From: Centroscyllium fabricii
Taxonomy: Eukaryota
DNA length: 64,000 bases
Direction: 5' to 3'
Assembly: GCA_051313645.2 (NCBI GenBank)
Contig: JBNRSN020000012.1
Coordinates: 69,626,001-69,690,000 of the forward strand
The notes beneath the pieces were generated by a model that saw only the letters and a list, made by a program, of their open reading frames with translations, was not told the origin of the DNA and searched no databases. How positions within the stretch are numbered: position 1 is the stretch's first letter; every line of letters begins with the position of its first letter. Positions 18,226 to 63,622 of the stretch are shown in pieces. A program made the position numbers and the translations under genes.

Positions 18226-18327
18226 CTGCTGTTAGTAACACTGAGCCACGTCGGGAGTCTCTCTTCTGCCCAGATGAGCTAGACTCGCTATTCTTCTACT
18301 TTGACACCGCTTCAAAATCTAATAGTA
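18226..18327 (+). CDS. ACAP2: Symmetric cassette exon (AAVSNTEPRRESLFCPDELDSLFFYFDTASKSNS), ACAP3-like motif
   Basis: taaccag|CT GCT...AGT A|gtaagt, 102 nt, phase 1-1, open frame. Matches recalled ACAP3 RRDSLFCPDELDSLFSYFD. Confidence 0.85.
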
Positions 18328-20084: not shown

Positions 20085-20296
20085 ACCAGAAGGTCACGGG
20101 TCAAGCTCATCCATCCACCTCAGTCTACCAGAAGGTCACAGGTCAAGCTCATCCATCCACCTCAGTCTACCAGAAGGTCACAGGTCAAGCTCATCCATCC
20201 ACTGCAGTCTACCAGAAGGTCACCGGTCAAGCTCACCCATCCACCTCAGTCTACCAGAAGGTCACCGGTCAAGCTCATCCATCCACCTCAGTCTAC
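20085..20296 (+). repeat. Minisatellite, 42-bp unit x5
   Basis: accagaaggtcacNggtcaagctcatccatccacctcagtct repeated five times with few substitutions. Confidence 0.95.
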
Positions 20297-23670: not shown

Positions 23671-24460
23671 TGGTTATGGAGAATGAGAGGTCTTTACAAA
23701 TTTCCCATGGCATGCCACTAGCTACACCTGCTGAGCCAAAAATATCCAATTCCTCCTACTCTGCTTTTTATCCTTCAGCCATCTTCTTTCCAGCTAAGTA
23801 ATTTCCTTAGAATTTGATTAATGACCAGCCCTGTGCTGACTAGCCCATATCTCCGTGCTTAATAATGTTATCCCTTATGGCTGCTAGCAGTTTATAGTTA
23901 CCTGGAACATTTATCACCCTCCAGTCCTTTGATAATTTTCTAAAAATGCTTTGGAAATAATTTATGGTAATAAAGTAAAATGTTTTGTAGAACATGACAG
24001 TACATGAACTGGTAGGACCATGGAAATATGTTAAGGAAAGCAACCAGTAAAGGATGAATGAAATAAAATAATACGGTTGTGTAGATGCTTTGGAACCTTA
24101 CTTGATTTATTTGGGGGGTGTGCAGAAAGAAACTTTGTAGAACATTTTCTCTCTTTCTCAAAAGGGTTGGTGGAGTTGATGATAATTCAGAGCCTCTAGA
24201 TATTCCCTGCCCCATGAAAAGGCACCTGTCCTCCACTGTCTACCTCCAAAATAGCGCTGCTGAAATAAGGAGCATGGAGATAACATCTGTACTTCACCAT
24301 TATGTGATTGTGTGTTGTATCCCTGTGCTGCTTTGATTTGAAAAAATTGAATAAAGTAAAATATGTATTGTTCCAGTGTGAAATGCTCTTTAGTTCTGTT
24401 TAGAAAATTGAGTACCTTTAATTTGTAACAAAACTATTGTACTTTGCTTCTTTACCTTAG

Positions 24461-24571
24461 GCAAGTGTGTTTATTTCTGAAGCGAGGAGCTGATCAAGGT
24501 GCATTAGATGAAGCAAGGAAGGACCCACTCACCATTGCTGTAGAAGCTGCAAATGCAGATATAGTTACATT
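24461..24571 (+). CDS. ACAP2: ACAP2 ankyrin exon (QVCLFLKRGADQGALDEARKDPLTIAVEAANADIVTL)
   Basis: ccttag|G CAA GTG...ACA TT|gtgcgt, 111 nt. Confidence 0.96.
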
Positions 24572-24636
24572 GTGCGTATCACTATATTTATAGTGTTTAT
24601 TCTTTATACACGGTTTTCATTCTGTTTGTTTTGGAA

Positions 24637-25090
24637 TTAGGAACATAGGAACAAGAGTAAGCCATTCAGCTTCTTGAGCCTGTTCCGCCATTCATTGAGA
24701 TCATGGCTGATCTGTGTCCTAACTCCATTTACCCGCCTTTGCTCAATATCCTTGGCTGGCAAAAATCTATCGATCTCTGAATTAAACTTATTAATTGAGC
24801 TAGCATGTACTGCTTTTTGTGGGAGAGTGTTCCACACTTCTACCCTTTGCATGAAGAAGTGTTTCCTAACTTCTCCCCTGAATGGTCTGGCTCTGATTTT
24901 AAGGTTATATCCCCTTGTCCTAGACTCCCCCGCCAGCAGAAAATGTTTCTCTCTATCTATCCTATCAATTCCTTCAAAATCCGAAAACCGCAATCAAATC
25001 ACCCTTTAACTTTCTATATATCAGGCCTAGTTTATGTAATCACTCCTCATAATTTAACCCTTGGAGCCTTGGTAACATTCTGGTGAAATT
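24637..25090 (-). mobile_element. CR1 LINE 3' fragment
   Basis: ORF 24637..24993 (SRTRGYNLKIRARPFRGEVRKHFFMQRVEVWNTLP). Tail ggaacataggaac. Confidence 0.85.
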
Positions 25091-28037
25091 CTTGCAGATT
25101 GTAGAGGCAAAGTCCAAGGATGTGCTTTTTGTTCATCCTACCACTGTTTTATATGTAGAGTAAAATGATACATTCATCAGAATCTTCTTTGATGTTTTAC
25201 TAAAATACATCAAATGTCTTATCAGCATGGAGACTTCAAGTTGGATCTTCTTCCCTGATTGGCCATTCCGGGGGTATTGTTGACTTTGCATTATTTAGGA
25301 ACTATAGGAAACCAGGAGCTCTATAACTTCATACTGGTCAGAAAACTGCTATGAAGCTTCATGTTTTCTCAGCCAATAATGTGGTTTCCCAGGGCTCCAG
25401 ATTGACCCTTTGACAGGTTCATAGTTAAAGGCTGTTTGCAATTGAGCCACTTTTAGAGATGGAGATCAAACTCAAGGCTCTGCATGCTGGAAAAAAATCA
25501 AACCGGATTCCTGAGAGATTCTGTAGATCAAAAGTGCTCTGTTTAGACTCCCCTTTAACTAGTCTCCTCTGGAAACAAATATTAGCTTGGTAATACTGCA
25601 GAACCAGAAAAACATGTAAACGATATTTGTGATATATGTCTTGTAACAACTTAATCTATCAACACAGCACCTCCCTTTTTATTTCAAAAGATTTGATCAG
25701 CCAATTGAAACTTTTATTTTGACCATATAATTCAACATGTAGATTTAAACCAGAGGTGGCCAATTTATGTTGTGAGCCACATATGGCTCCCTGTGGCTAA
25801 GGTGTGTTTCTTTGCTTAGCCACAGCCACTGATATGCTGGCAAAGGAGAAAACTAGTAGGAACACTGACACTTTTGCAAAAAAAAAAATCACAAGCCATC
25901 AGTTCAAATCTGCATCAGAACACAAGCCAGATCCACTGCTGGATTACCACTGGATCATTCGCAATAATGGACTTCTGCAGCGGTTCAAGAAGGCGGCTCA
26001 CCACCACCATCTCAAAGGCAATTAGGGATGGGCACTAAATGCAGGCCTAGCCAGCCAGCGACGCCCACATCCCATCAATGGATTCAAAAAAAAGATACTA
26101 AATTTTTTTCAGTAGAATAGGGAACCATCATCGTACCCAGCAGATCCTGAGAATTGCATACAAAGCATTTTGCTTGATTATCTCTCTCTGACGTGCTTTG
26201 GGTTGCTTTTCCAAGTTAAAGCTACTGTTTAAATGCAAGTTGTTGATCTACAAAGTACCGATTGAGGAGTGACATGAGTGAGCGAGACTGGAAGACATAC
26301 AGAAACTCAGGTACTCCATAAACTCGGATGGAATTTTTCTCTGGTGGCTCTAGATGCCCTGCACTGAAGAACAGTGATTTCAGAAAGCAAGTTATTACAT
26401 CTTCTAAATTTCAAGTCATTATTGAGCACTGAATAGAAATGTCTATCATCTTCAAGTTGGATTATTTAACCTACCAGAATAAGAGATGGCTGACATCAGA
26501 GCTGGGCTGTAGTCCTCAATGGATTATCTATGCCTTCTCTCTGTTTCCACTTGCAGGATCATTCACAAAATACAAGTAGAGGAAATTTCACACCTTCCGC
26601 ATGATCTCTGGATGTTTAACTGAAATGGATGTTTAGCAACACAACCTAGCATTATATTTGCTTTTTGATTCCTGCCTCATGCTGTTTTGTCGCTCATCAT
26701 GTCTAAACAGTGTCAAGACAACTAATGCCCATAGTTCTCATTTCAGATTTCCTCTTCACAACTTCTGTTCCACACTTGTAGCATGAATGCCTCCAATTTA
26801 TCTTATCTGTATTGAATTCCCATTTGCAACTGATCAGCTCAGGTACAAATCCTGTCAAGCTCTGTGTGTAAAACGTTAGCCCACAGTCTAATTTAGTTTG
26901 TTTTTTGTGAATCTAACTGCCTTGCATTGAGACTGCATTTTTGAAGGAATCTTTCATACAATATTTTATCATATCTGGTACTTTACAAAAGGCATTTTGG
27001 AAGTCGAGGTACACTCCTTATATAGCGAGCCCATTCCATCATCCCCCCCCCCCCCCCTGTCAAATTTAGGATGCCATTTCAAAAAAGTCCAAGATTGGCC
27101 AGCAAATCTTTATCTTTTCAGGCACTATCAGCTGTCACTTTTTATGTGATTTTTCATACAGGTATTCTTCCATTTTGTTTCTGATTACTTCTGTTATTGT
27201 CAATTAAGGTTCTGTTGCCCTTTAAATTGGCAATTACATTTGCCTGTTACTGTCCTGTCTAAACCTCCCTTGTGTTTATTGATTTCCTTAAAATGACTCA
27301 GTGCCTCATAAATCGGCTCCCTTGCCACTAATTGCCTTGGGGCATAGTTCATCCATCGCAGAGATTGATTTGTAAATTGGATCTCAAAAGTACCAGACTT
27401 CCTGTTCTCTTGTTTGAAACACTCCGCTTCTGAGAAACCTTCAACCCTGATGGTTTGAAATATGAATTGAACAGATTTGCCCTCTGGTGGAGAAAGAGTG
27501 GATGTAAACCACTGAGATGAAACATTTCAGCTGTTGTAGCTGAAATCTTTTTTCGGTAGTTTCTTATTTTTTTGGAAGAAGTTTGACATTCATGTTAAAA
27601 GCCTCCCCCACCCTCAATCAACCCTTCTTTCTAATATCCTACTGTTAGGCTCTGTTAGCTGGGTTTTTATAAACTAATATTGCTTGTCATTTGAGGTCTC
27701 CATTGCTTTCTCTGGTTGAAGAAGTGAAGATATAATCCAGAATGAGATCTTCCATATAATAGTGGGGGAGAAATCACCTGCCCAAAATGGCAAGTCATAA
27801 AAAGATAATGACCATACCTACAGAACATAGTTGAGCAATTGTTCTCATTTATCATAGTATTAAAAATGGTTAAATGTCATCAAAATTGGCGAATCTTTTG
27901 TTGTATACGTATTTCCAAAAGGTACATTTATTGTCGCCAAACAGAATACCAGAAATATTTTTGAGGTGATATTAATGTTTGGTCCGATCTGATATCGTTA
28001 CTCTCCTCAGCAAGTTGATGTACTTTTGTTTTCACAG

Positions 28038-28182
28038 ATTACGTCTAGCAAAGATGAATGATGAGATGCGAGAATCTGAAGGCCTTGGACAGTCAGGTCA
28101 ATATGCCAGTAACAGTCATACAGAGATGCAATATAAAAAATGCATGCAGGAATTTATTAGCTTGCAACTAGAAGATTCTTGA
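28038..28182 (+). CDS. ACAP2: ACAP2 composite exon: internal 28038-28096, or terminal read-through to TGA at 28182
   Basis: cacag|A TTA CGT CTA GCA AAG ATG (LRLAKMNDEMRESEGLGQS). Internal donor CAG|gtcaat at 28097. Read-through gives GQYASNSHTEMQYKKCMQEFISLQLEDS*. Confidence 0.92.
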
Positions 28183-28699
28183 GCCTTATTAAAATTAAAG
28201 GGTTATTTTAACATCTACTGTGAGGGGCTGGGGGGTAGGAATGGGAGCCTCATGGCCGTGTCATTTGGCAGGTGATGCCGTACTTAAATTGATGTATTTC
28301 ACCCAATTGTAGGACCAATATTTTGACCAGCTGAATCACAAGAAATAGTGTATCTTTTAATCAGAAAAAGTAGATACCAAAGTTATTTGGCAAATATAAG
28401 CAATGCATCCCAAAAGTTTAAAACATTCAGTATTTACATAAGAGCTGGGATCCTTTAGTTATATTTTCCAGAATATTTTCTGTATATTTTGATCTTCGAC
28501 ATTGCATAGCTTGAACTTTTAGCAAAAGTTAGATGATACTTAATAAAGTATTGAAATTGAGAGATAGTGAATGTTATCGCTCTGAGTCAGAAATTGATTT
28601 TAAAAGGTAAAAATAGGACGTTAAAGGAAATTATTTATGGAGTGATGAGTTTTCAGAGTTCTTTTGCCTCGTTTTCTCTTTCTTCCCATCGCCCCCCAC

Positions 28700-29050
28700 C
28701 CCCACAAAAAAAGGCTCTGATTCTTGCTTAGTGTGGTTAACTGGGCACCAACAGCCCTCTGATACCTCACCCAAATCACCATACTTTCTGTGCAAGTCCA
28801 GACAGAAAAGTAATCAACCATGGAGTGCCTCACAGCCAATTCCAATCCTGTCCTTATCTGATGTCCGTACACTTGCACTTTCCAGGAGGAGTCACTGGAT
28901 AACAATCAGGAGCAGGAACTCTGGCTGATTTTATTTTTAAGCCCAGGTACCTGGAAGGCAATATTAGCACTCCCCGAACTCAACATGGAGTGGGGTGATC
29001 TGAATGTTTTAGTACCACATCAGTTGGTCCATTTACCCAGTTGGCCATCG
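28700..29050 (-). mobile_element. Old SINE-like repeat (same family as 9690-10010)
   Basis: Shared blocks in reverse complement. Confidence 0.45.
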
Positions 29051-32000
29051 GAGATGCATCAGTTTCGAGAGGTTTTTCTTCCTGTTCTATGAAAGTTGTT
29101 TTCTTCTTGCACTTTACCCCCAACATGCCCTTCTTGATTGGAAAAAGTTGTACAATTTGTGGATCATTGCCTATGATGCTGTTGAACTAGTTGCTGGGAA
29201 ACACTGAACAGCAGCATGAGTTCACTTGGCCTGGAATTTTCTTCAGGGAATGGTCGTCTTTTGATTTGGTATTCCCTTGGAATGCCATGGCTGAAGTCAC
29301 TGGGAAGAATTCATGGTCTACCATGGTGCCACAATGCACAAACATAACATGTTATGGCACTTGGCTACCTGGTGTGGATATAGTTTAATTATTGGAAAAC
29401 ACTAAGAAAATCTTGCCATTGAACTTTAAAAAAAAATACAAACATCAGTGTTTAGTTTAAATTATATTCCTGCAAAGAACTGCAGTGTAACTAGAAAATA
29501 CTGCAATTTCTGTCTGTTTTTCTGTGGTGTTACTTTTATTTGTCAGGAAAGGACCAAGATGTGAACATTTTAAGTATTATAGATGGTGTTTTCAGTTCTT
29601 TGTTTTTAATGAAGTTAATTCAGATGCTTGGCCTGCTCAAAAAAAATAAACCAATATTTTTCTCTGAATTTCAGCAAGTTTTTATGAAGCCATTTCACTT
29701 TGTGCAGATAATTTTTTGATTTTACTTTTGTCAATTTAGCATTATAAAGGGTTCCCAGCATTGAAATGTGACCTAGTCATACAGAATTAGGACAGTAGTG
29801 ACAGTTTACATTCATTTGGAGACATCAACAATAACAGGGAAATCATAAAATGGGGAAATTATTGCAGAGGTATAAAAGGTATTCATAGTAGGTGAGAAGC
29901 TATGTTGGGAAGTTATTAGAAAGCATTGTATTGTTATTTGAGATTCTGTAACTAGCAGTAACAATTCTGTCGCTATAGACCATATCTTGTTGATAGTTAT
30001 AACTTTACTATGGTAATTACTCAGTGAGTTCTGTAGTCTACTAGTAAAAGAGACCACAAAATAAATAATTATGCACTGTTCAAAGCCATATGCAACATTC
30101 TCTGCCGCTTTTATATTTAGGTTTTAACTATCAATCACAAAAGCCAAATTGGTGCTAGTAAATACATCTGATTGTTTCCTATCATTGCTTTTATTCTTGT
30201 CTGTACTGTGTGTGTCTTTTGAATGTATATCGTGTGCCTTTTTGTGTTCTTAATCTGGGATGCTAATTGCAGTATTACTGTATTTGTGTATGTACTTTTT
30301 GCACTTTAAATGCAGCATTACTGTAAAAAGAAATGCAGTTACTGATGTAAGATTTTTAAATCTTTAAGTATATGAAGACTGCAAGTTCATTGCCACTAAA
30401 TGTTAAGTATGCGTTACAAAAAACAGCTGATAGGATTGACCCGCATTCCATAGTTTCTGCTACTTTAGCAATCTGTAAAACATGATCCATCTCTTGAGGT
30501 AATGAGTTAATTAAAACTCTTGCAGTTGTAATGGTATTTTCAGAAATGAATTGTTCCCTCAAAACGCATCCCATAACTTCTAATATGACTATTAGCTTTA
30601 CAAAGGGTTTCCAATTATTTATGCTGAGTGTGAGCTCACTAAATGCATTTAAATTGCCCTTCAGTATCATACCATCTTTTTGGTATACAGGCTGATTCTC
30701 TTAAAATAAGCCTTAACTTCAGATACTTTTTTGAAATATTTTTTCTAGCGTATTTAGGTCATCTTTAGTGGCATGTTAACCTGTTCTTTTACTGAATAGC
30801 ATAACATTTCAGTACTTATTGCTGTATCTTTATTTGTATTCAAACCTGCAGGTAATTTTTGATTTGTATTTAAATGTAAGCAACAAATTAGAACTTGCAA
30901 ATAATTAATTATGATTTTGCTTCCACCACAGTTGTATATGGACCTGATTGTGCATGAAATTCTTGCATAACTCTATATTCATGGTTAAAAGCAAAACTCC
31001 CAATTTGTTCTTAACTTAGTCTGCATTAATGCCATCATTCTGGTTCTAAGCATGTCTTGTTTTCGCTAAACCTTAGTATTTCCAATTATCTACTGATTTA
31101 TATCACTGCTTTTAAGATAAATTAATTTCTGATTGACTACATAAGAGACTTGTTTAGTTCAAAAAAATTAAAATGAACCCAATAATGCTACTGTTTTTCA
31201 GTTTTCACTTTCAAATGGGAGAATTAATTGAAATGCTGGCATAATTGGAGACAAAATGAAACACGGCACTGTGACTATCATTGGTCTCTTTCTAAACTAA
31301 ATATCCAACCTGCTTCAGTAAACTATGCTTAAGATTTTGAGTGTTTGAGTTCTGAAGAAATGATTTTTTTAAACATTTAAAAATCAGTTTCATAGTATTA
31401 TGGTTAGATTAGTATGATAGGAACAAGAGATTAATTGAATTACATCAATATATGGTAGTGATTTTAATTATTTTGAAAATGTTAAATTAAGATCAATTTA
31501 ATTGATTAATGAGCCATTTATAATGTATACCATCAACTAGAATATGCATGTGGTCTGAAAAATACTGTTACAATTTTGGTGAGGTTTGCAGAAATGGGGT
31601 TGGTCTTTGTTTATTTAAGGTATCTTGTTTATTCGCTTTTGCCAATTGGTTCTCCTCTTCCCACTCTTCTTGACTGTTTCCCAACTCAACACACACCATC
31701 TACGATTGAGGGGACAAGCTGCTCCCAGCCCCCTCTCGGTGCCTTTCAGAAGTTAGCTCCTTCGGGATGTGTAGCAATAGCATCAGGAGGAGTCTCCTTT
31801 CCTTTGCATTTTCCTTCTGTTTGTGGGTTGCACTGGTCTCTATTTGGTGCTTATCCAAAGCAATGCTGATAAGATTCAGAATTTGGTAGTTTAGGAAATT
31901 GTGGTCACACAACTACAAAGTACCGTTAAGTGGTGAGATGAAGCTTTGATGCTCTGCTGAGCTTTCAACCTCTGCTGTATTACTGTGGCGTGCCAGTGAG

Positions 32001-32595
32001 TAGCTTTTTCCCCACAGGGAGGAAAAAATAAAAGGGCGAGTATTTCCTGGGTTGTTGATTCATGTGTAGCTTGAGTGATTCAGAGCAACATTGGTGGAGA
32101 CCTGGCAGCAGGGTAACCATGGACTGCAAAGGCGAGGAGGAGGGAAATGTTTTTGGGGGTGGAGGTAAAATTAGAGGGTAAATAACCTCTCCAAAACATG
32201 TGCACACACATCTTAAATGTGGAATAAGCAGGGAACTAAAGAATTTGGGAAGTTTTGAACCAAGTGGTTGAAGCTATCATCGCATTCTTTCTTATAAGCT
32301 GTCTCTTGATTCTTGCACTCTTGATTTCAATTTTGCTGCCCTGAGGTTCATGCAGGTACAGTAGTGTTACCTTGTGTGGTGTATACATTTCTTTTTCTCC
32401 CAGTATTGTAAGCTATTTACTGGTCATTGCCAGAAATTCTTGTATATGTCTTTTTTTGTATCAGTATTTTAAAACTAGCCTCCTTTTATGCGGTTTCCAA
32501 ATGCTTTATCTAAACCTGTTGACGCCTAACATCTTCTTTGAATTCTCCACAAATTAATTATTGTAAGCCAATGTGAGAGATGGCAAATTATGCTC

Positions 32596-32601
32596 AATAA
32601 A
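32596..32601 (+). terminator. Candidate polyadenylation signal for the proximal (read-through) isoform
   Basis: AATAAA near the end of an AT-rich, repeat-poor stretch, just before LINE sequence resumes (~33085). Other candidates at ~28542, 29645 and 30060. Confidence 0.35.
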
Positions 32602-33084
32602 CATTGTTATGGTGCTAGCTAAGTTATATTGAAAAATCTCATTAACCTTTATGATATTTTGACACTTTCAGCATTGTGTGTATGTTTCTATATTTCCCCT
32701 CTGTTGATGTTAGTGAGAGATTCTATGGAGGATGATGAATTACTGGGTAATTTACCATCCTATGAAGTGCCATGTCCTAGCTCTAATTAAAAAAATTAAA
32801 AACTCCGTAAATACAAAAAATACTGGCCATCTGATGCAGGGTTGTCATACACAAATTGGACTCGAGATTCAGTTCGGGAGCAAATAATTAAGTTTAATTC
32901 TTGAGGTTTGATGTCATCTGAGCTACTTGATTGGATTCTGTCCTGTAGTCCACTACATTGCCCTCTGTAGAGTGGATCAAAGTATACTGCTGTATTAAAA
33001 AAATTATCCTCCTATCTCAGATTATAGCTGTTTGACATGCCTTGCCAATACTTTGCAAAATATTTAACAGAAAATATCCACAGC

Positions 33085-34185
33085 AATTTTTATAGCACCT
33101 ATTTAATGTTTTACAAAACAGTTCCAGAATGCTTCAGAGGGGAAATGGACACTGAATAGTAGAAGAGTTCAGAGAATAGCAAAAGCATGGTTTTGAGGTG
33201 ACGTTTAGAAGAAAGAAACCGGAAAACAGAAAGTGTATTTAGAGAGTAGGGCCAAGATAGTTTATGGCTCTGCCACCAATAATGGAGGAGAAGGTGGGGG
33301 GTGGGGTGGGGGCAAGAGAGAGTTGAGACCAGAGTTGAGGTCTGACAGGCACAGGCTTGGACATGAGGCTCCAGAATTTGGTGAGGGAAGGTGGAGCGAG
33401 GCAACGATAGGATAATAAATAAGACAACGGATTTTTTTACTCAAATTGGTAGACAGGGAACCAATGCAGACTGACAAAGATGGAGTGATGGGTGTGACCA
33501 TGCAAGTTCAGGAGGAGAAGCCATTGTTGAAGATATGCTGGCAATGTTTGGACTATCTGGCAATGTTGGGACAAGTAGGAGGGAAACGACATGAAGTCAG
33601 TCCCTTCGAGGTGGACTACACAGGAGAGATGATGTCAAGTTGAATATTGCAGAAAGGTCAAATAGGTTTAATGTATCAGTCACAAATGGCATTGTTGGTT
33701 TTCACCGGGGCCGTCTCCGTGCTATGGGAAGCATGGGAGTCAAACTAAAGGGACTTGAACAGAGGCAGTTATGTGGAAAGACTGGAGAAGCTGGTGGTGT
33801 TCTCCTTCAATCAGAGAAAGTTAAGGAGAGATTTAATAGAGGTGCTCACGATGATGAGTGGTTTTGAGGAGTATATAAAGAGAAACTGTTTCCAATGGCA
33901 GGTGGGTCGGTAACCAGAGGACACAGATTTAAGATAATTGGCAAAAGAACCAGGAGTGGGAAGTTTTTTTTTTATGCAGCAAATTATGATTTGGAATGCA
34001 CCACCTGAAAGGATGATGCAAGCTGATTCATTCGTAACTTTCAGAAGGGAATTGGATACATACTTGAAAAATAAAAATTTGCAGGGCTATGTACATGGAG
34101 CGGCGGAGTGGGACTAATTGAATAGCTCTTTCAAAGATCCAGCACAGGCACGATGGCCTCCTCCTGCGCTTTAAGATTCTATGAT
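33085..34185. mobile_element. L2 remnant (minus, ~33085-33780) followed by CR1 3' end (plus, ~33780-34185)
   Basis: atttttatagcacct L2-type tail. CR1 segment taaccagaggacacagatttaagataattggc and tail ttctatgatt. Confidence 0.6.
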
Positions 34186-34370
34186 TAGGAATATTGGTTA
34201 TTGCCTTTATATTTGTGTTCTGGATTAATTAATTCAACCACAAAAGCATTCAGTAGATGTTCAGGATAAATTGACACAATAATTATACAAAGAATGTGCA
34301 TGTTTATAATAAATAAAGGAAGAAGCAGATTTTATAATTCTATGAATCACAATTTATTCTGTTTTTAATT

Positions 34371-34960
34371 TAGAAACATAGAAGATAGGAGCAGGAGTAG
34401 GCCATTCGGCCCCTCGAGCCTGCTCCGCCATTCAATGAGATCATGGCTGATCATCCAAACTCAGTAACCCGTACCTGCCTTCTCTCCATATCCCTTGATA
34501 CCTTTAGCTCTAAGAACTATATCTAACTCCTTCTTGAATACATTTAATGAATTGGCCTCAACTACATTCTGTGATAGAGAATTCCAAGGGTTCACCACTC
34601 TCTGGGTGAAGAAATTCTTCCTCATCTCTGTCCTGAATGGCCTACCCCTTATCCTTAGACTGTGACCCCTGGTTCGGGACTCTCCGACCATCGGGAACAT
34701 TCTTCCTGCATCTAGTTTGTCCAGACCTGTCAGAACTTTATAAGTTTCGATGCGATCCCCTCTCATTCTTCTAAACTCCAGCGAGTATAAGCCCAATCGA
34801 CCCAATCTCTCCTCATACGTCATTCCTGCCATCCCAGGTATCAGCCTTGTGAACCTTCGCTGAACGCCTTCCATGGCAAGAACATCCTTCCTCAGATAAG
34901 GTGACCAAAACTGCACACAATACTCAAGGTGTGGGCTCACCAAGGCCCTGTACAACTGCA
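34371..34960 (-). mobile_element. CR1 (HER1-like) LINE 3' fragment with open RT C-terminus
   Basis: LQLYRALVSPHLEYCVQFWSP...FFTQRVVNPWNSL (ORF 34461..35057). Tail tagaaacatagaa. Confidence 0.93.
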
Positions 34961-35105
34961 GCTTTGTGGAGTTTACAAAACATTGTCTCGTGTGTACTGT
35001 AGATCTCAGTTGATTGTACAAATTACAATAAATTTGTATTTCAAAAATATTTATCAAATTATTTGCTTCAGTGACTCAACAACTTTTAAATTTTTTTTAT
35101 TGCAG

Positions 35106-35206
35106 GTGATGCGACCTACCAGGATATTTTCAGAGACTTTTCCAACATGGCCTCTCATAACCCTGAAATATTAAACCGATTCCAGCGGAGATCAGAGACT
35201 GATTGA
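35106..35206 (+). CDS. ACAP2: ACAP2 canonical last coding exon (GDATYQDIFRDFSNMASHNPEILNRFQRRSETD*)
   Basis: ttgcag|GT GAT GCG ACC...GAT TGA. Phase 1 matches the donor at 28096. Matches recalled ACAP2 GDETYQDIFRDFSQMASNNPEKLNRFQ. Confidence 0.95.
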
Positions 35207-36702
35207 TTAATTTTTACTGCATTTCTCACCTTGAGATATGCAATCATTCTTTCTGTGCAATCATCTTGAAGCATATTCATCAGTTCATTTCATTATATAT
35301 ACTGTACCAAAAATAAATTGAAGTTTTGAGTTTTGAAGAAAACAATTATAAATGAAGGAGCTTTTGCTTATATATTTACAAGCAACTGCAGTGATTTATT
35401 CTACTCTGGAGTACAGTGTCTATGCAAATACCCAACCTTTGTGTTTTCATTTTTGTTTCGATGTTGAGTTGAAGCTAAAATCTTCTGAGGTGTTTCACCA
35501 CTAGGAGATGTGCAAATAGAATGGGTGTTCAAGTTGAACAGAAGTTTTGAAATTTTGTGTGCCCAAATTATAGGAATAATTCCACTTCTGTCGTCACCAG
35601 CCCATGATTTTCCATCCATTAAGCTGAATGGTCAAAGTCATGAACACGAGTATTTTTACCCCATTACCTTTTAAAATTGCGCTCAAACTATCATAGATAC
35701 TGTGATGGTTCAGCTGCAATGCAGTTGTGTACATCTCTGAAAACGGACACACTGGTAACCTATAAGTGCTGTTGGGAGCAATAAATTCATATTAGGACTG
35801 TGCCCATTTTAAATTGGTTTCCTTTTACAGAATAGAAAATGCCGTTTGTCTATTGTTTCAGGAAATATTTTATTACATTTTTAAAACTTTGTACATTCTT
35901 TATCTCATCCAAGAAATTTTAATTTGTAGTTTTTTTATATATCTTTTTAAATACTTTGCCTTCTACCCACAGTTGGCTACAATATATAGCTACTGATTTG
36001 GTGTACTATGTACATAACTTATATCTATAATTTTATTTACACCTAAACATAAAATCCAGTGCATTAAGATAAACTGCTAATAGGAATTGGGATTACTGGA
36101 TGACTAGCTGCATATTGCACCATTGAATTAATTTACGTAGTGAACAGTATATCGTCAGCAACAGACCAGTTTTTTAGTTCATAACTTCCGGATGCAAAAC
36201 AAATCGAGTGTCTTAAGTTTCTGTACAATACCCCTGATAAATAAAAATGTTGCCCACTTCATTGCCAACAATCAAACCATCTGGAGTACATGGAAATGCA
36301 AATAAGTTAATATTCTTAATTGATTTTGTTTCCCAAAGTTTAAAGAGCTAGATGACGGCAGCTTTTTAAATATATTGCCATCTATCAGTGCTGCTACAAA
36401 AGTAACACCTGGTGTATCCCATGTTTTTATGCTATGAAAAGTAGAACTTTTTTTGAAATTAAAATAAAACATGCAGAATAAGGCTTCCTGGAAAATCAAA
36501 TTTTTAATCCTTTATTTTTTTTTCCTGCAGAAGTAATATAAATATATCAATAGATGTTCCTGTGAAATTTCAGAATATGTTCAGAGATGGATAAAACTGT
36601 TTTGGTGATGCAGTTTTCTGTTTTGTTTTAGCTGTTTTGGTGCTTTTTTGTTTTGTTTTAGTACATTTGTACAAAAGAATTTAAGTATATCATTAAAACC
36701 TC

Positions 36703-36950
36703 AATAAAAATGTATTGAAAACCTATGAACTACATTATAAGCTTCAAAGCAGTTGAGCATTGTAACATGTACATTACTTGTGTTTCAGTTTAATGTTTGA
36801 TGTGACCTTTAGTGATGCCAATAAGCATTTGAAACTGCTTTTTGGCCAGTAAGCATTAGCGTGTGGAGTTATTGTGGATTTGGTACATAATCAGATCCGT
36901 TCGATCCAAAGCTGAACAATACTTCCCCGTAGTTTTGAAACTGAAATAAA
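36703..36950 (+). terminator. Candidate polyadenylation signals of the distal 3' UTR
   Basis: AATAAA at 36703-36708 and 36945-36950 with U/UG-rich context, ending a repeat-free AT-rich tract downstream of the stop. Confidence 0.45.
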
Positions 36951-38172
36951 TGTATTCATTCTCATTTGTTAATGGAATTGCATCTCGTACTATATTTATT
37001 GTATATATCAACTTTTCTGTATTGAGTATTTTTGTTCACATTGTAGAATCATTATATAAAAAGTTCCCCACAAGCTTGTGCTACTTTACATTTCATGAAC
37101 AGAAACGAAATATGCATTTAATATTTAAAACTGCAGTAGGCATTTTGTATTACAGAGGCTGCATTACATTTTTGAGGTTTACCGTACAATTTTCTGGAAT
37201 TTTTGAAGTAGGTCCAGGCTAAAATTGTCCAGAATCCCAACATTTTCTCTTGTCTGGCGAGCATTAATAATGTGGAATGGAAGGAAAAGTGGGTGAAGTA
37301 CGCTGTTATTGGAAAGTTAATGTATGCTGTGGGTTGTACTTATTTCTTATTGGCCAGTTTTTGCATGCACCCTGGGGGGGGGAAAAAGGTTTCTGCAAAC
37401 CATAATGTCTACAGTAACTAACTACAAGCATGATGGTCCAGCCAATTCTTTGTGGTTGTCATTGCACCTTTCTAACAGTCAGTTTACATCTTGGTGGGAA
37501 TCACCATTTACATCTGTAGACATGGGTATCAAGTTCTCAGCTGCAATGTGTTCCTGCGTCTCACAAATAGAGGATTCCTCTAACTGCTGGAAAAAGTGAG
37601 TGAACTCAAGTGTGAGCACCTACACTGCAGTGGAATTTTTTTTAAAACTTTTACTTTCCTGCCATATACAACAGACTAAGTAAGGAGCAGTCCACAAAGA
37701 TGGCAATGAGTTACAGTAAGCTATAATGCTGGAGTGTCTGCCTGTTCATTGGAGGCCCGTGTTCAAATCTCAGCCTTGATTTAAGATTTCAGTTCAGATT
37801 TTATATAGGTACACGTTTGACTACTTTGACAAAAAGAAAATAGGGGAGGTGTCCATTCCCATGTAACTCATCAGTCAGCTTGACGGAGGAGCAGCATTGG
37901 TCTGTTTGCATAAAGATGCTTGCCCTATTTTCTCAACTTTGGAGGATAGCATGATGCAAAGAGAAATAAATGGTGGGTTAGATTTTCCATTCGTTCATAA
38001 TCCAAATCTGTCCATAAATACTCAATAGCAAATCATAAAATACTATTCCATTTTGACAGAAACTGGTAAATAAATGTACCAATAAGGTTTGTGTAGCCAG
38101 CCTTTGCTGCTGTTTAAATAAAGAGAATGGTTTCCTGTACACAGTATAGGAAAGCATATAATGAAAATAGTA

Positions 38173-49649: not shown

Positions 49650-49853
49650 TCCTTTCTTTGCATTGGTTGCTGCAATTCTCAATGAATTCGCATCACGTCC
49701 GGTACGAGGTTGGATTGGTCGTTAATGCTGAAGCCAATTGGCCTGTTCCTTCACCAATCGGCTTCGCCATGGCGCTTTCCTGCGCTCGAAGCTGGAAATA
49801 GACCCGAAGTGGCCGTCAGGCGGGACAATTGGTGTCGGCACGGTGTGAAAACA
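49650..49853 (+). promoter_or_regulatory. XXYLT1: XXYLT1 CpG-rich promoter and 5' UTR
   Basis: Clustered CCAAT/ATTGG boxes (~49662, 49714, 49734, 49755), palindromic CGCCATGGCG YY1-type site at ~49765, and local CpG enrichment. Confidence 0.7.
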
Positions 49854-50360
49854 ATGGGATTGTGGAGAATGATTGTACAGACTAAGGCGAAGTTCATCCC
49901 ATTCCGCTCCTGTCAGTTTGCCCTGTTATTTGCAGCTGCACTGGCCGTTTGTGCCTTTTACTACTTTGGATCCAACCACGAAAATTTTTCCAGCACCACC
50001 AGGAGAATGAAAGAAAACCAGGCAGGGAAGAGCGGGCCGGGCGATGCTCCACCGGCAGTGAATCCCAGTGGGAAAAAACCGGCCGGATCTCCAGCAAGTG
50101 CTGCAGCCGGTAACGGCGAAGCCGGCAATTCGCCGGGGAAAGGGACCATGCAGTTTCATGCTCTTATGATGTTTACCAAAGTAGACAAAAACTACGGTCT
50201 CCAAGAAAAATTTACGGTTGCCATCAAGTCGATGGTAAATCACGCAGTGTTTAAAGACGACGAGGTGCTCCATCTGCATTTTGTTGCTGATGCAGGCAGC
50301 AAAAAAATAGGAGAACCGCTCCTGCAGAAGCTGCTGCAAGCCGCCACCTTCAAGTACCAG
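49854..50360 (+). CDS. XXYLT1: Xyloside xylosyltransferase 1, exon 1 (169 codons, type II membrane anchor)
   Basis: Kozak ACAATGG. ALLFAAALAVCAFYYFGS..ENFSSTTRRMKE and HALMMFTKV..EVLHLHFV match recalled XXYLT1. Donor CAG|gtacct, phase 0. Exon 2 was not seen in the window. Confidence 0.95.
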
Positions 50361-50391
50361 GTACCTTTCCAAGTTGTCTGCATTTTAGGGA

Positions 50392-50837
50392 TGATGTGGA
50401 GGTGCCGGTGTTGGACTGGGGTGGACAAATGCAAGAAGTCACACAACACCAGGTTATAGTCCAACAGTTTTATTTGAAATCACAAGCTTTCGGAGCGTTG
50501 CTCCTTCCTCAGGTGAAGTGACGAGATTCATTTAAACATAGCATATATAGAGAGAGAGAACAATGTGGTCTCTCCAACTGTTCCACATCACACCTCAGCA
50601 GAGAGACATCAAAGCAATCAAAGGTGTTCTAACATGTCAATTTGATGCTTTGATGTCTCTCTGCTGAGGTGTGATGTGAAACAGTTGGAGAGACCACATT
50701 GTTCTCTCTATATATATATATATATATAATGTTTAAATGAATCTCGTCATTTCACCTGAGGAAGGAGCTGCACTCCGAAAGCTTGTGATTTCAAATAAAA
50801 CTGTTGGACTATAACCTGGTGTGTGACTTCTTACAAT
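50392..50837. mobile_element. Penelope-derived fold-back element (family B) with two intact hammerhead cores
   Basis: Inverted arms of ~185 bp. Cores at 50481-50515 (-) and 50753-50787 (+). TGCATTTTAGGGA is duplicated at 50379-50391 and 50838-50850. Confidence 0.85.
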
Positions 50838-59439: not shown

Positions 59440-62400
59440 TCACAAGTCCAGTCTAGTGGGTTTTACTACAGGTCTTCCAGATCTCGTTCTGAAAGTGTGC
59501 TCCGGACTAGGTGTTTGTGGTCTCGGGGATGACACAGGAGCGTGTGTCTGGGCAGACACCTGTAAGTTGGTTGTGTCCATGACGCTCTCAGGTCCGTCCA
59601 TAGGAATAAGATGGTGCCTGTTTCTACGTACAGTCCCCTGAGGCACGTCTACTATGTAGGATCGTGGTGCTGAGTGTTCATTCACCACAGTCCCAGTGAC
59701 TTTGGCGTCAGTCACCCACACCTGTTGCCCGGATGGGAGACTGCTGAGATCAGACGCTCGGTGACGCTTGTTGTAGCGTGTCAGATCAGCGCTCCTTCTC
59801 TCCTTCTCCTTCGACTTAACTGTGGTGCTGCTCGGCAGTGCTGGGTCCAATAGCGATGGAGAGGTTGGCACAGTGGTGCGGAGCTGGCGCCCCATGAGCA
59901 GCTGAGCAGGACTAAATCCGTTCTGGAGTGGCGTCGATCTGTATGCCCGCAAGGCAAGATACGGATCAGTGGCTTTCTTGAGATTCTTTACCGTCTGAAC
60001 AGCACGTTCTGCTTCTCCGTTGCTTTTCGGATATCTCGGGCGGCTGGTCACATGCTGGAATCCATATGTCGCGGCGAAGGCTGAGAATATGCCACACGAG
60101 AATTGCGGCCCGTTATCAGTCACTGGTGTCTCAGGTACTCCATGACGCGCGAACATTGATTTGAGATGAACTGTAACATCAGTGGACTTAGTGAAGGTGA
60201 GGTTCGCTATCTCAACATACCTCAAGTAATAGTCCACCACCAGCAGGTAAATTTTACCTTTAAGTGCAAACAAATCCGCCCCTAACTTCTGCCAGGGTCT
60301 GTCAGGAAGTTCTGTCTGGATGAGCGGCTCTGCGTGGTTTGTACGTTCCCTGATACATGTTCTACAGCTTAGCACTAGCTCGTTTAGCTGCTGGCTCAGG
60401 CCAGGCCACCACACACTCTGTCGCGCCCGCTCCCTACATTTCACGACGCCCTGATGTCCTTCATGTAGCTTATCGAGGACATCATTCCTTAGGGGTGAAG
60501 GAATGACCAGCCTTGTACCCTTCAGTAGAAGACTGTCCTGTACGGTTAGGAAGGCGCGCTCCGTCCAGTACAGTTTTAAAGTTCCCTCACATGCGTTGTA
60601 CTCAGGTCATCCATCCCGACACATCCGCATAACGGTAGAGCACACGTTATCCGTTTTCAGGTGCTCTCTCAGGTTGTCCAGGTAGGAAACGCTCGCTGGG
60701 AGGTTCTCCATGATGCTGTCCACATAGATGTTTGTGCTCTCCATGAGCTCTGTGTCTGTGTCTACTGCGTTGTTCTCCATCGGTGCTCGTGACAGCGTGT
60801 CTGCGGTCCACAAGCTTTTTCCAGGAACATGAGATATTATGTAAGAATACCTCATCAGTCTCATTCTGAAATGCTGGATCCTGGGGGGTAAGGCAGAGGT
60901 TTATGATCCGTCTCTAACTCAAAGTGTTGGCCCATCAGAAAGTCTCTGAACCTTTCACAGGCCCATGTCAGCGCCAGCGCCTCTTTTTCTACCTGTGCGT
61001 ATCTCTGCTCGACTGGTGAGAGAGATCTGGAAGCGTAGGCGACAGGCCTCCATTCCTCGCCCCGTTTCTGTCGCAGGACCGCTCCCAGTCCGAAACTGGA
61101 CGCGTCTGCTGACGCCTTACTCTCTTTGTTGGGATCATACAGAGCTAGCACAGGTGTGCTCGACAGCTCCTCCTTCAGGCTGTTGAAGGCTTTGACCTGG
61201 TCGACTCCCCAGAGCCAGTGATTTTTCTTAGACAGCAAGTCTGAGTGGTTTATCCTTTTCTGCTTGCTGAGGGATAAACTTTCCTAACTGATTCACCATC
61301 CCCAGGAAGCTGCGTAGCTCAATTACATTGGTGGGCTCCTGCATCTCTCTTACTGCTGCTGTTTTAGTCGGGTCTGACTTTACTCCCTCATCTGTAATTA
61401 CGTGACCCAGGAATTTAACTTCTCTTACTGAGAACTCACATTTCTCCATGTTGAGAGTTATTCCTGCCTTCTCTATCTTCCTCAACACTGCATGAAGACA
61501 AGAGTCATGTTCTGTCTGCGTGCGCCCCCATATTAGTGCATCATCCATATGGCAAACAACGCCCTCTAAGCCCTCAGTGATCTCTGTGACCATTCTATTC
61601 TGGAAGTGCTCGGGTGCCGATGCAATCCCAAAGGGTAACCTATTAAAGTAATACCTCCCAAATGGTGTAATAAAGGTCGTCAGTTTAGCTGATTCTTCGG
61701 CTAGCGGTATTTGCCAGAAGCCCATGTTAGCGTCTAGCTTGCTAAAGATCTGAGCATCAGCTAGTGAGCCTAGAGTCTGCTGTACCGAAGGCAGTATATA
61801 CTTCTCCCTACACACTGACTTGTTTAGCATTGTGAGATCGACACATATGTGAGGCTCTCCTGACTTTTTTGCTACTACTACCATGCCTGAGCACCATTCA
61901 GTGGGCTCCTCTACCCGGCTGATAACTCCTATCCTTTCCATGTGCTCAAGTTCTTTTTTCACCTTTGGCATCAGTGGAAGAGGTACCCGTCGCGGTGTCT
62001 TCAGGGAGAATGGCTCCGCCCCAGGTTTCAGCTTGATGGTGTATGGCTGCTGTATAAGGCCAAGACCGCTGCACAGCTTTGGATAACTGTTTTTCAGTGT
62101 GTCCAGGCCGACGGTGTTGAGTGGTGCCACCAGCTCCAGCTTGGTGATGGCGGGTCTGCCTAGTAGCGCTGTGTGCAGGTTTCTTATCACATACACGTCC
62201 TCTTGTATCTGCTGTCCTCCTTTCTGTAGCGTGATGTTTGAGACTCCCAGGACATCCAGTGGAGTGCATCCTGGTCCCAGTATCGGCCTCTTTGCTTGTT
62301 GAAGTTTTGGAATATCACCTTTGAACACAGTATTAAACACATAGTCAGGGATAACAGTCACATCAGCGCCAGTGTCTATTTTAAATTTGACCTTTCTGTC

Positions 62401-63622
62401 TTTGATCTTCACGTTCACCATCCAAGGATCTCCGCCTGCTGCCACTGTGCCCAGGAATAAGCTGCTGTCCTCCTCTTCTTCTTTTACCTCGTGCACAACT
62501 TTGGAGGATGCACACACGCTTATAGTGGCCTTTCTTGCCACACGCATGACACATTACATCATTAGCAGGGCACTCCGTTTTTGGATGTGAGGGACTGTTT
62601 CCACATTTGAAGCATGATTTTGACTGTGTCTTATTTTTCTCTGTGTACGTTTTGTTTGGCTTGTTAAACTTCTTATTTCTCTGAAATTATTTACCTTTAC
62701 TCACGACTCTATCCACAGAGCATGTCTCCTTAGTATTTTCTCCCCGCAGGTTGCGCTGTTGCTGTCTCACTGCTTCCGTCTGTCTGGCCATTGCCATCGC
62801 TTTTTCTAGCGTGAGGTCTTTATCCAGCTGCATTCTCTCTGACAGGCGCACGTCCGCGAGCCCGACAACCAACCTGTCCCTAATCAGTTTATCATGCAAA
62901 GCTCCGTAGTTACAGTGTTCAGCCAAGGTATACAATGCGGTCACAAAAGAATCGATTGTTTCACCTGTTAGAAACATAGAAACTAGGAGCAGGAGTAGGC
63001 CATTCGGCCCTTCAAGCCTGCTCCGCCATTCAATGAGATCATGGCTGATCATCCAAACCCAGTATCCCGCCCCTGCCCTCTCCCCATATCTCTCGATCCC
63101 TAATCAACACATATCCCACCCTATCCCTGTAACCCCACATATTCAATCCCCCTAACACTAAGGGTCAATTTATCCTGGCCAATCAACCTAACCCGCACAT
63201 CTTTGGACTGTTCCTTGCTTCCTCATATTAAAACATGCTCTTTCATAAATCACGTTCTTCTTCACCACAAAGAATGCCAGAAATCCATCTCTTACTGCGT
63301 CATACTGTAGTTGTTGAGCGTCGGATAGATTCAGTCCTTTCAGAACGTCATCCGCTTCGTCTCCCATACAGTACATAAGAGTGTTCACTTGGTTCGCCTG
63401 TGTGGTTGTATGGAGGTTACTGGCCTGACGGAAGCGCTCAAACCTCCGTATCCACTTTTCCCATTCTTGGGGTTTGGTGAAGTCAAACGGCTCCGGTGGC
63501 TAGATGCTGAATGTAGCACTAGGCCCCGGCACGGGTGGTGGTTGAGCCATCCCCGCGGCTGCTGCTATCTGTTGTGGACTCGGACCGACTTGTTGTCTTC
63601 CGACAACTTCGTCCGTCGACAT
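59440..63622 (-). pseudogene. Disrupted gag-pol polyprotein
   Basis: ATG at 63622 with a premature TAG at ~63501. Two zinc knuckles (CFKCGNSPSH..C, CHACGKKGH..C), protease IDTGAD, RT LPFG and CHMDD, RNase H ADASSFGLGAVL, integrase TDNGPQF and SNGEAERAV. Several frameshifts and a SINE insertion. Confidence 0.93.
62970..63207 (-). mobile_element. 5'-truncated V-SINE inserted in Gypsy gag
   Basis: 3' half of the SINE flanked by CTGTT (62965-62969 and 63208-63212). Excising it restores FNMRKQGTGETIDSFV. Confidence 0.9.

Follow-up and report, generated by a model that had tools for sequence, protein, structure and literature searches.

The 64 000 nt window analysed here (Centroscyllium fabricii, assembly GCA_051313645.2, contig JBNRSN020000012.1, positions 69,626,001 to 69,690,000 of the forward strand; part of genome contig C224) covers the 3′-most two-thirds of a + strand ACAP gene, with PH-domain exons from 2.4 kb and the last exon at 35.1 kb. 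The gene, identified as ACAP2, whose product regulates membrane recycling, appears to end in a composite terminal exon that gives access to two conserved C-terminal tails. When a donor at 28097 is used, the shared exon is joined to a distal exon at 35106, and when it is skipped, the reading frame continues into the intron and encodes a second tail. We put the probability at about 0.8 that this arrangement is real, that the switch between the tails predates the duplication that gave rise to ACAP2 and ACAP3, and that the switch exchanges what is predicted to be the last helix of the protein.

The two tails and their splice signals

An earlier reading made from the sequence alone (the sequence-only reading) placed an acceptor before 28038, a donor CAG|GTCAAT at 28096|28097 and a second acceptor before 35106. 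These positions, and both peptides deduced from them, are exact. The read-through product is GQYASNSHTEMQYKKCMQEFISLQLEDS, closed by TGA at 28180–28182, and the spliced product is GDATYQDIFRDFSNMASHNPEILNRFQRRSETD, closed by TGA at 35204–35206. The features concerned, with the evidence for each including contigs of four sequencing runs described below, are as follows (UTR, untranslated region).

24460–24571, + strand: last ankyrin-repeat exon of ACAP2, joined to 28038 (tblastn; GT..AG joint in 3 of 4 runs)
28038–28096, + strand: shared exon, LRLAKMNDEMRESEGLGQS, which prolongs the last ankyrin helix (sequence and contig joints; helix in the model)
28097–28102, + strand: optional 5′ splice donor GTCAAT, lying over the read-through codons G-Q-Y (junction in 4 of 4 runs; hexamer also in shark ACAP3 and in a teleost-like ACAP3 contig, L058)
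28097–28182, + strand: read-through coding tail and stop, 28 residues counting the shared Gly (sequence, protein matches, comparison of paralogs)
28183–32350, + strand: read-through 3′ UTR, about 4.2 kb or longer (contig cover to 32350 in run X1 and, patchily, to 32171 in run X2)
32596–32601, + strand: candidate poly(A) signal AATAAA for the read-through isoform (first AATAAA past the contig ends)
35106–35206, + strand: distal last exon, coding part and stop (sequence and contigs; matches PDB 6IF3 chain A residues 150–174)
35207–37100, + strand: distal-isoform 3′ UTR, about 1.9 kb (contigs reach 37070–37100 in 4 of 4 runs)

The donor at 28097 had been described as weak. A crude count gives no sign of this, as seven of nine positions agree with the U1 consensus, which ties with the best of the other donors scored in the gene, but the two that depart from it, +3 and +5, are positions at which a mismatch is regarded as weakening. 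An open frame of 27 codons is in itself unremarkable (P about 0.15 from the local composition), and it is conservation rather than frame length that argues for a real read-through tail.

Conservation of the read-through tail

Of 122 database candidates, 69 match the read-through tail and all 69 carry it at or near the end of the protein. They are spread over chimaera, bichir, gar, teleosts, frog, crocodile, squirrel and gibbon, and identity to the shark tail is 27/28 residues in the chimaera and 24/28 in squirrel and gibbon. Among proteins of the mammal, crocodile and bichir type, 34 of 39 have an identical 28-residue tail, though these rows are not independent. The annotated ACAP2 read-through isoform extends from chimaera to primates, as had been anticipated when it was suggested that predicted isoforms elsewhere may show both tails. 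A search of the ESM Atlas returned only matches under 0.9.

Comparison of shark ACAP2 with shark ACAP3 (described below) also points to constraint. The two read-through tails share 17 of 28 residues and 69 % nucleotide identity, falling to 25 % past the stop, and the differences are distributed 5/4/16 over codon positions 1, 2 and 3, with proportions of nonsynonymous (pN) and synonymous (pS) differences of 0.19 and 0.87. Both the coding constraint and the ACAP3 similarity on which the sequence-only reading depended are thus present, and, given 24/28 identity between shark and mammal, the second tail is likely to be functional.

The two tails have the same helical spacing (Tyr, two hydrophobic residues, an acidic residue and Phe), which raises the question of whether they are themselves homologous, the last exon having been duplicated in tandem and one copy having become fused to the upstream exon. 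The best ungapped match of 12 residues between them is no better than that of shuffled sequences (424 of 2000 reach the score), therefore an origin by exon duplication is not shown, and a search of the supplements to catalogues of such exons turned up no ACAP gene. We regard this origin as rather unlikely.

Transcripts from related fishes

Transcripts were sought in the assembled contigs of four runs (X1, X2, X3 and X7; three studies, three organisms) placed on 24300–37200. These came from ten runs with a small share of the stretch that were presumed, by guess, to be RNA. The junction 28096–35106 (GT..AG), together with cover of the distal UTR, was present in all four runs, and the upstream joint 24571–28038 in three. 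Cover past the read-through coding part, 28097–28182, was found in two of the four. In both X1 and X2, one contig begins at 28069 and runs into the intron; this is the fork point expected of a 31-letter assembly graph and reads as alternative splicing. The depth of the upstream junction in X1, 78.3, is close to 32.5 + 44.4. No read-through cover was seen in X3 or X7 (another organism), contigs being able to show presence but not absence. A further six Logan-derived proteins of 673–812 residues (P0022, P0024, P0031, P0035, P0038 and P0039) end in the read-through tail and are each encoded on a single contig of 2.2–7.2 kb, and must therefore derive from spliced transcripts. Transcription of both tails in related fishes is supported by these data, and the comparison of junction and read-through that had been proposed as a check came out in favour of both forms, on contigs of relatives.

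Read-through cover in two of four runs, with no mapped end, is also what unspliced pre-mRNA or intron retention could leave, in which case the peptide would be a relic. However, depth over the read-through region in X1 is 20–32 as against about 1 in the upstream intron, and it is 0 at 32489–33350, so that cover stops well before the distal exon. The synonymous bias between paralogs, the 24/28 identity with mammals and the spliced full-length contigs that end in the tail also speak against a relic, and we consider this explanation very improbable. A retrocopy as the source of the junction is unlikely, as a search of the genome with the distal peptide gave four matches, each preceded by an acceptor-like intron end.

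Each stop had been described as followed by an AT-rich, repeat-poor tract with AATAAA signals. The nearest of these signals do not mark the ends of the transcripts. On the read-through side contigs pass the signals at 28542, 29645, 30060 and 32027 and continue to about 32350, and on the distal side they pass those at 35312–36945 and continue to about 37070–37100. Nor is the first tract free of repeats, as depth spikes at 28610–29040 in all four runs.

ACAP3, the other paralogs and the age of the pair

By sequence comparison, the gene in the window is ACAP2, because its exons are better matched by whale shark ACAP2 than by catshark ACAP3 (tblastn), it pairs with zebra shark ACAP2 in the tree (support 100/99) and XXYLT1 lies downstream. 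XXYLT1 also adjoins human ACAP2, at 3q29. There are four ACAP genes in this genome; three are known in human. The identities of the other three were judged from their sequences, searches for neighbouring genes around them (contigs C823, C1193 and C767) having returned mostly repeats.

The gene on C767 is ACAP3, its tail exon being 100 % identical to that of annotated shark ACAP3. It has the read-through tail with the identical donor hexamer, and its distal exon lies 36 kb further downstream. Elsewhere, annotated ACAP3 proteins with the read-through tail are found in sharks, carp, turtles and birds, and those with the distal tail in sharks, rays, chimaera, sturgeons, coelacanth, amphibians, reptiles and birds. 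White shark (X1/X2 versus X3), emu (X3–X6, X8 and X9 versus X7) and Xenopus each have annotated ACAP3 isoforms with the one tail and with the other. Because ACAP3 of this genome and annotated ACAP3 of sharks, frogs and birds carry both tails, the pair likely predates the split of ACAP2 and ACAP3, and the proposal of a pre-duplication ancestor with both tails is borne out to this extent. A paralogon study (PMC6354393) counts ACAP among the families drawn on to trace the two rounds of genome doubling in vertebrates.

In several frog genera, a third annotated ACAP3 isoform has the read-through tail followed by the distal tail in tandem (P0253, P0341, P0343, P0345, P0347, P0375, P0376, P0378 and P0379), therefore a second donor is implied at the end of the read-through coding part. 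Two further frog ACAP3 annotations (P0344 and P0353) continue from the shared exon into yet another short tail, the fourth, EKFYLSML.

The remaining two shark paralogs keep only the distal tail. The ACAP1-like gene on C823 (15464462–15522207) has the distal exon, and its read-through consists of GQYPCV followed by a stop (L003:1563–1580). Of the 12 bases after the donor, 10 are identical to those of ACAP3. The tail may have been lost recently, or the short form may itself be under constraint. The gene on C1193 (50681–112689; L011, L012 and L024) has the distal exon and no trace of a read-through tail; it has a long branch and could be a fourth ohnologue that was retained. A tree from a short alignment leaves both genes without firm placement, and either could be the counterpart of mammalian ACAP1.

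An outgroup was provided by a spliced, diverged ACAP gene on metagenome contig L059, which is 45–46 % identical to all three vertebrate paralogs and lies outside them in the tree. It ends in a distal-type tail and, because of this, the distal tail is likely ancestral and the older of the two.

Mammals and subfunctionalisation

It had been proposed that mammalian paralogs emphasise one tail each, the ACAP2 type and the ACAP3 type. This fails for ACAP2, which keeps both in mammals, as is evident from the 34 identical tails noted above and from a single squirrel ACAP2 gene with 11 annotated isoforms, two of them read-through and nine distal. The labels "ACAP2-type" and "ACAP3-type" mirror the reference annotation and not the identity of the paralog, and the apparently paralog-specific tails of the mammalian reference proteins would be leftovers of a shared ancestral splice choice.

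Mammalian ACAP3 appears to be different. The motif G-[QH]-Y that lies over the donor is present in 49 of 54 distinct read-through tails and in none of the six of the mammalian ACAP3 type. In the anteater, Ala replaces the Gly whose codon must supply the GT, therefore the GT of the donor cannot be present. The mammalian ACAP3 signature was found in 0 of 162 distal-tail proteins. Loss of the donor and the distal exon from mammalian ACAP3, at a late stage, seems likely from these protein comparisons. A metagenome scan with a mammal-type ACAP3 tail, as a route to mammalian loci, gave no match.

Subfunctionalisation in which the duplicates divided the tails between them, the distal one going to ACAP2 and the read-through one to ACAP3, can draw on a both-tailed ancestor, on the lost donor motif of mammal-type ACAP3, on the use of the distal tail by nine of the 11 annotated squirrel ACAP2 isoforms, and on a complementary pattern in which ACAP1-type genes are distal only and mammalian ACAP3 is read-through only. 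However, both tails of mammalian ACAP2 are under strong constraint, and ACAP3 of sharks, frogs and birds keeps both, so any loss was one-sided and long after the duplication. Complementary loss was not found, since mammalian ACAP2 and non-mammalian ACAP3 retain both forms. The both-tailed ancestor of the earlier proposal is therefore kept and its reciprocal partition is not; narrowing appears only in ACAP3, only in mammals and long after duplication. On the sequences available, the pattern of loss is uneven and late, with ACAP2 the conservative paralog. A reciprocal split is improbable and largely refuted; in a quantitative version, isoform ratios may have shifted between the paralogs.

The distal tail in the Rab35 complex

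Parts of two studies (PMC6358971, PMC11691468) describe ACAP2 as an effector that links Rab35 to the inactivation of Arf6 in neurite outgrowth, phagocytosis and myelination. The construct in the Rab35–ACAP2 crystal (PDB 6IF3; PMID 30905672) includes the distal tail, which is ordered, and the distal tail of mouse and squirrel is identical to the shark one at 21 of 25 residues. A model with the distal tail superposes on 6IF3 to residue 768 (Z 18.1, root-mean-square deviation (rmsd) 2.7, 144 aligned), and three ACAP1 structures without Rab35 align only to 697–704. All solved ACAP2 and ACAP1 C-terminal structures have the distal tail; a search for solved structures with the read-through tail gave no match at E 10. 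The read-through tail includes a predicted helix, residues 295–312 of P0007. The models thus predict that the tail swap exchanges the last helix behind the ankyrin repeats, in the part of the protein where Rab35 docks.

The crystal study by Lin and colleagues from 2019 is reported to describe binding of Rab35 to the last ankyrin repeat and a C-terminal helix, which could be either the shared or the alternative helix. Because the distal tail is ordered in the complex, the swap may tune the engagement of Rab35, a tentative suggestion that we hold somewhat short of even odds. Slightly better placed, though still under even odds, is that the swap serves another partner, autoinhibition or mainly the 3′ UTR (stability, localisation) and leaves Rab35 binding unchanged. 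Both tails have an acidic residue followed by Phe in the helix, the read-through 3′ UTR measures about 4.2 kb against 1.9 kb for the distal one, and the Rab35 determinants known so far sit in the shared ankyrin part, according to parts of PMC6358971. Against this stand the ordered state of the distal tail in the complex with Rab35 and the near-invariance of 28 residues, the latter arguing for a role at the level of the protein and not of the UTR alone.

A proposed mechanism and its weak points

In the mechanism we favour, a composite terminal exon with two tails, use of the donor at 28097 would compete with read-through and 3′-end formation in the intron. Splicing to 35106 would yield the distal tail. 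Skipping of the donor would carry the reading frame into the intron and the second, equally conserved tail, on an mRNA whose 3′ end probably lies at a poly(A) site within the intron, for which the AATAAA at 32596 is the candidate. The read-through tail probably arose in an early vertebrate by exonisation of the first 84 bases of the last intron, and the switch was likely in place before the ACAP2/ACAP3 duplication, though we infer this order of events. Afterwards, ACAP2 would have kept both tails in all lineages sampled and ACAP3 would have kept both except, probably, in mammals. The likely function is an altered engagement of the C-terminal module with Rab35 or another partner, combined with a different mRNA 3′ UTR.

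Several points weigh against this reading. The runs are contigs of relatives with RNA status guessed, and none is listed as RNA from this species. The read-through contig holds only 28 letters before the donor, fewer than the 31 needed for bridging. Use of the donor in some transcripts is seen in the junction of all four runs, but cover inside the intron, which reaches about 32.2–32.4 kb in two of the four with none beyond, comes from contigs, which cannot show a 3′ end, and an indel might account for the drop at 32.4 kb. As to age, none of 45 matches was identified as a read-through tail of lamprey, hagfish or amphioxus and named invertebrates did not appear, and the root and the order among ACAP1, ACAP2 and ACAP3 are not settled by the tree. 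As to mammalian ACAP3, a species is named for only one of the six mammal-type tails, and the blank for it in the distal-tail search is weak, as the same search also missed mammalian ACAP2 and ACAP1, which have the distal tail. With the read-through tail, the model can be superposed on 6IF3 no further than residue 752 (Z 24.2, rmsd 1.7, 141 aligned), and the tail helices have low confidence in both models (predicted local distance difference test, pLDDT, about 62–67 and under 50). Finally, the Rab35-binding-deficient substitutions N610A/N691A fall in the shared ankyrin part, as given in parts of PMC6358971.

A bolder version is that a conserved choice of splicing that predates the vertebrate genome duplications turns the link from Rab35 to Arf6 on or off, depending on the cell type, via a near-invariant mammalian ACAP2 isoform that replaces part of the Rab35-binding surface, and that mammalian ACAP3 is locked in the read-through state. 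Though we think this unlikely as a whole, if true, the lock would help to explain the differing action of ACAP2 and ACAP3 on Arf6 in neurons.

Relation to known systems

Composite terminal exons, which combine an alternative 5′ splice site with intronic polyadenylation, are a familiar class that includes the secreted and membrane forms of the IgM heavy chain and lamin A/C. As in those genes, an internal donor is set against read-through into the intron, here to a probable proximal 3′ end, and the C-terminus is changed. Unlike them, the ACAP products are both full-length and of near-equal size, and the arrangement is common to two ancient paralogs. In splice-form subfunctionalisation, as set out in parts of Lambert et al. 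2015 (PMC4417111), an alternatively spliced ancestor is followed by loss of forms in the duplicates. ACAP differs from the model in those parts in that ACAP2 keeps both forms and the loss in ACAP3 is late and restricted to one lineage.

Both isoforms are already known from automated annotations of many vertebrates, other sharks included, and the class of mechanism is common. The predicted ACAP2 isoforms of whale shark (XP_048460154.1, read-through) and squirrel (XP_047419483.1, read-through; XP_047419490.1, distal) have the same two tails and the same shared exon as the gene described here. They differ in being automated RefSeq/UniRef predictions, and no paper was found on the read-through form. 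ACAP3 of sharks, frogs and birds has the same architecture with homologous tails and, in sharks, the same donor hexamer, and differs as a paralog and, here, in having its distal exon 36 kb away. The 6IF3 construct resembles the shark distal isoform, whereas the read-through tail has no structural match. Among the best-ranked matches of partly broad literature searches, no paper on ACAP last-exon isoforms or their history was found. ACAP names were absent from the paper supplements searched, though one file each of PMC4417111 and PMC4494069 might list them. The ordinary class of mechanism and the existing annotation limit the significance of the finding. What gives it value is that an isoform with such deep conservation has apparently gone unstudied, in a Rab35 effector that is otherwise well studied, and that a simple binding test is possible for it.

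Other features of the window

The exon at 18228–18326, RRESLFCPDELDSLF..., is a second alternative exon common to ACAP2 and ACAP3. It occurs in gibbon ACAP2 isoform X4 and in catshark ACAP3, and is absent from whale shark isoform X2. The unusual donor GTGCGT opens two ACAP2 introns, at 24571|24572 and about 11524, and splicing was confirmed for the former. An ACAP2 intron contains, at 20085–20296, a 42-base tandem repeat present five times (95 % matches).

The downstream neighbour is represented by its first exon.

49686–50459, + strand: XXYLT1 first exon inside an open frame (xyloside xylosyltransferase 1 match, E 1.6e-12)

In the XXYLT1 region, 59440–63499 on the − strand is a long terminal repeat (LTR) retrotransposon with gag, protease, reverse transcriptase, RNase H and integrase frames in broken pieces, which from its motifs we take to be of the gypsy type.

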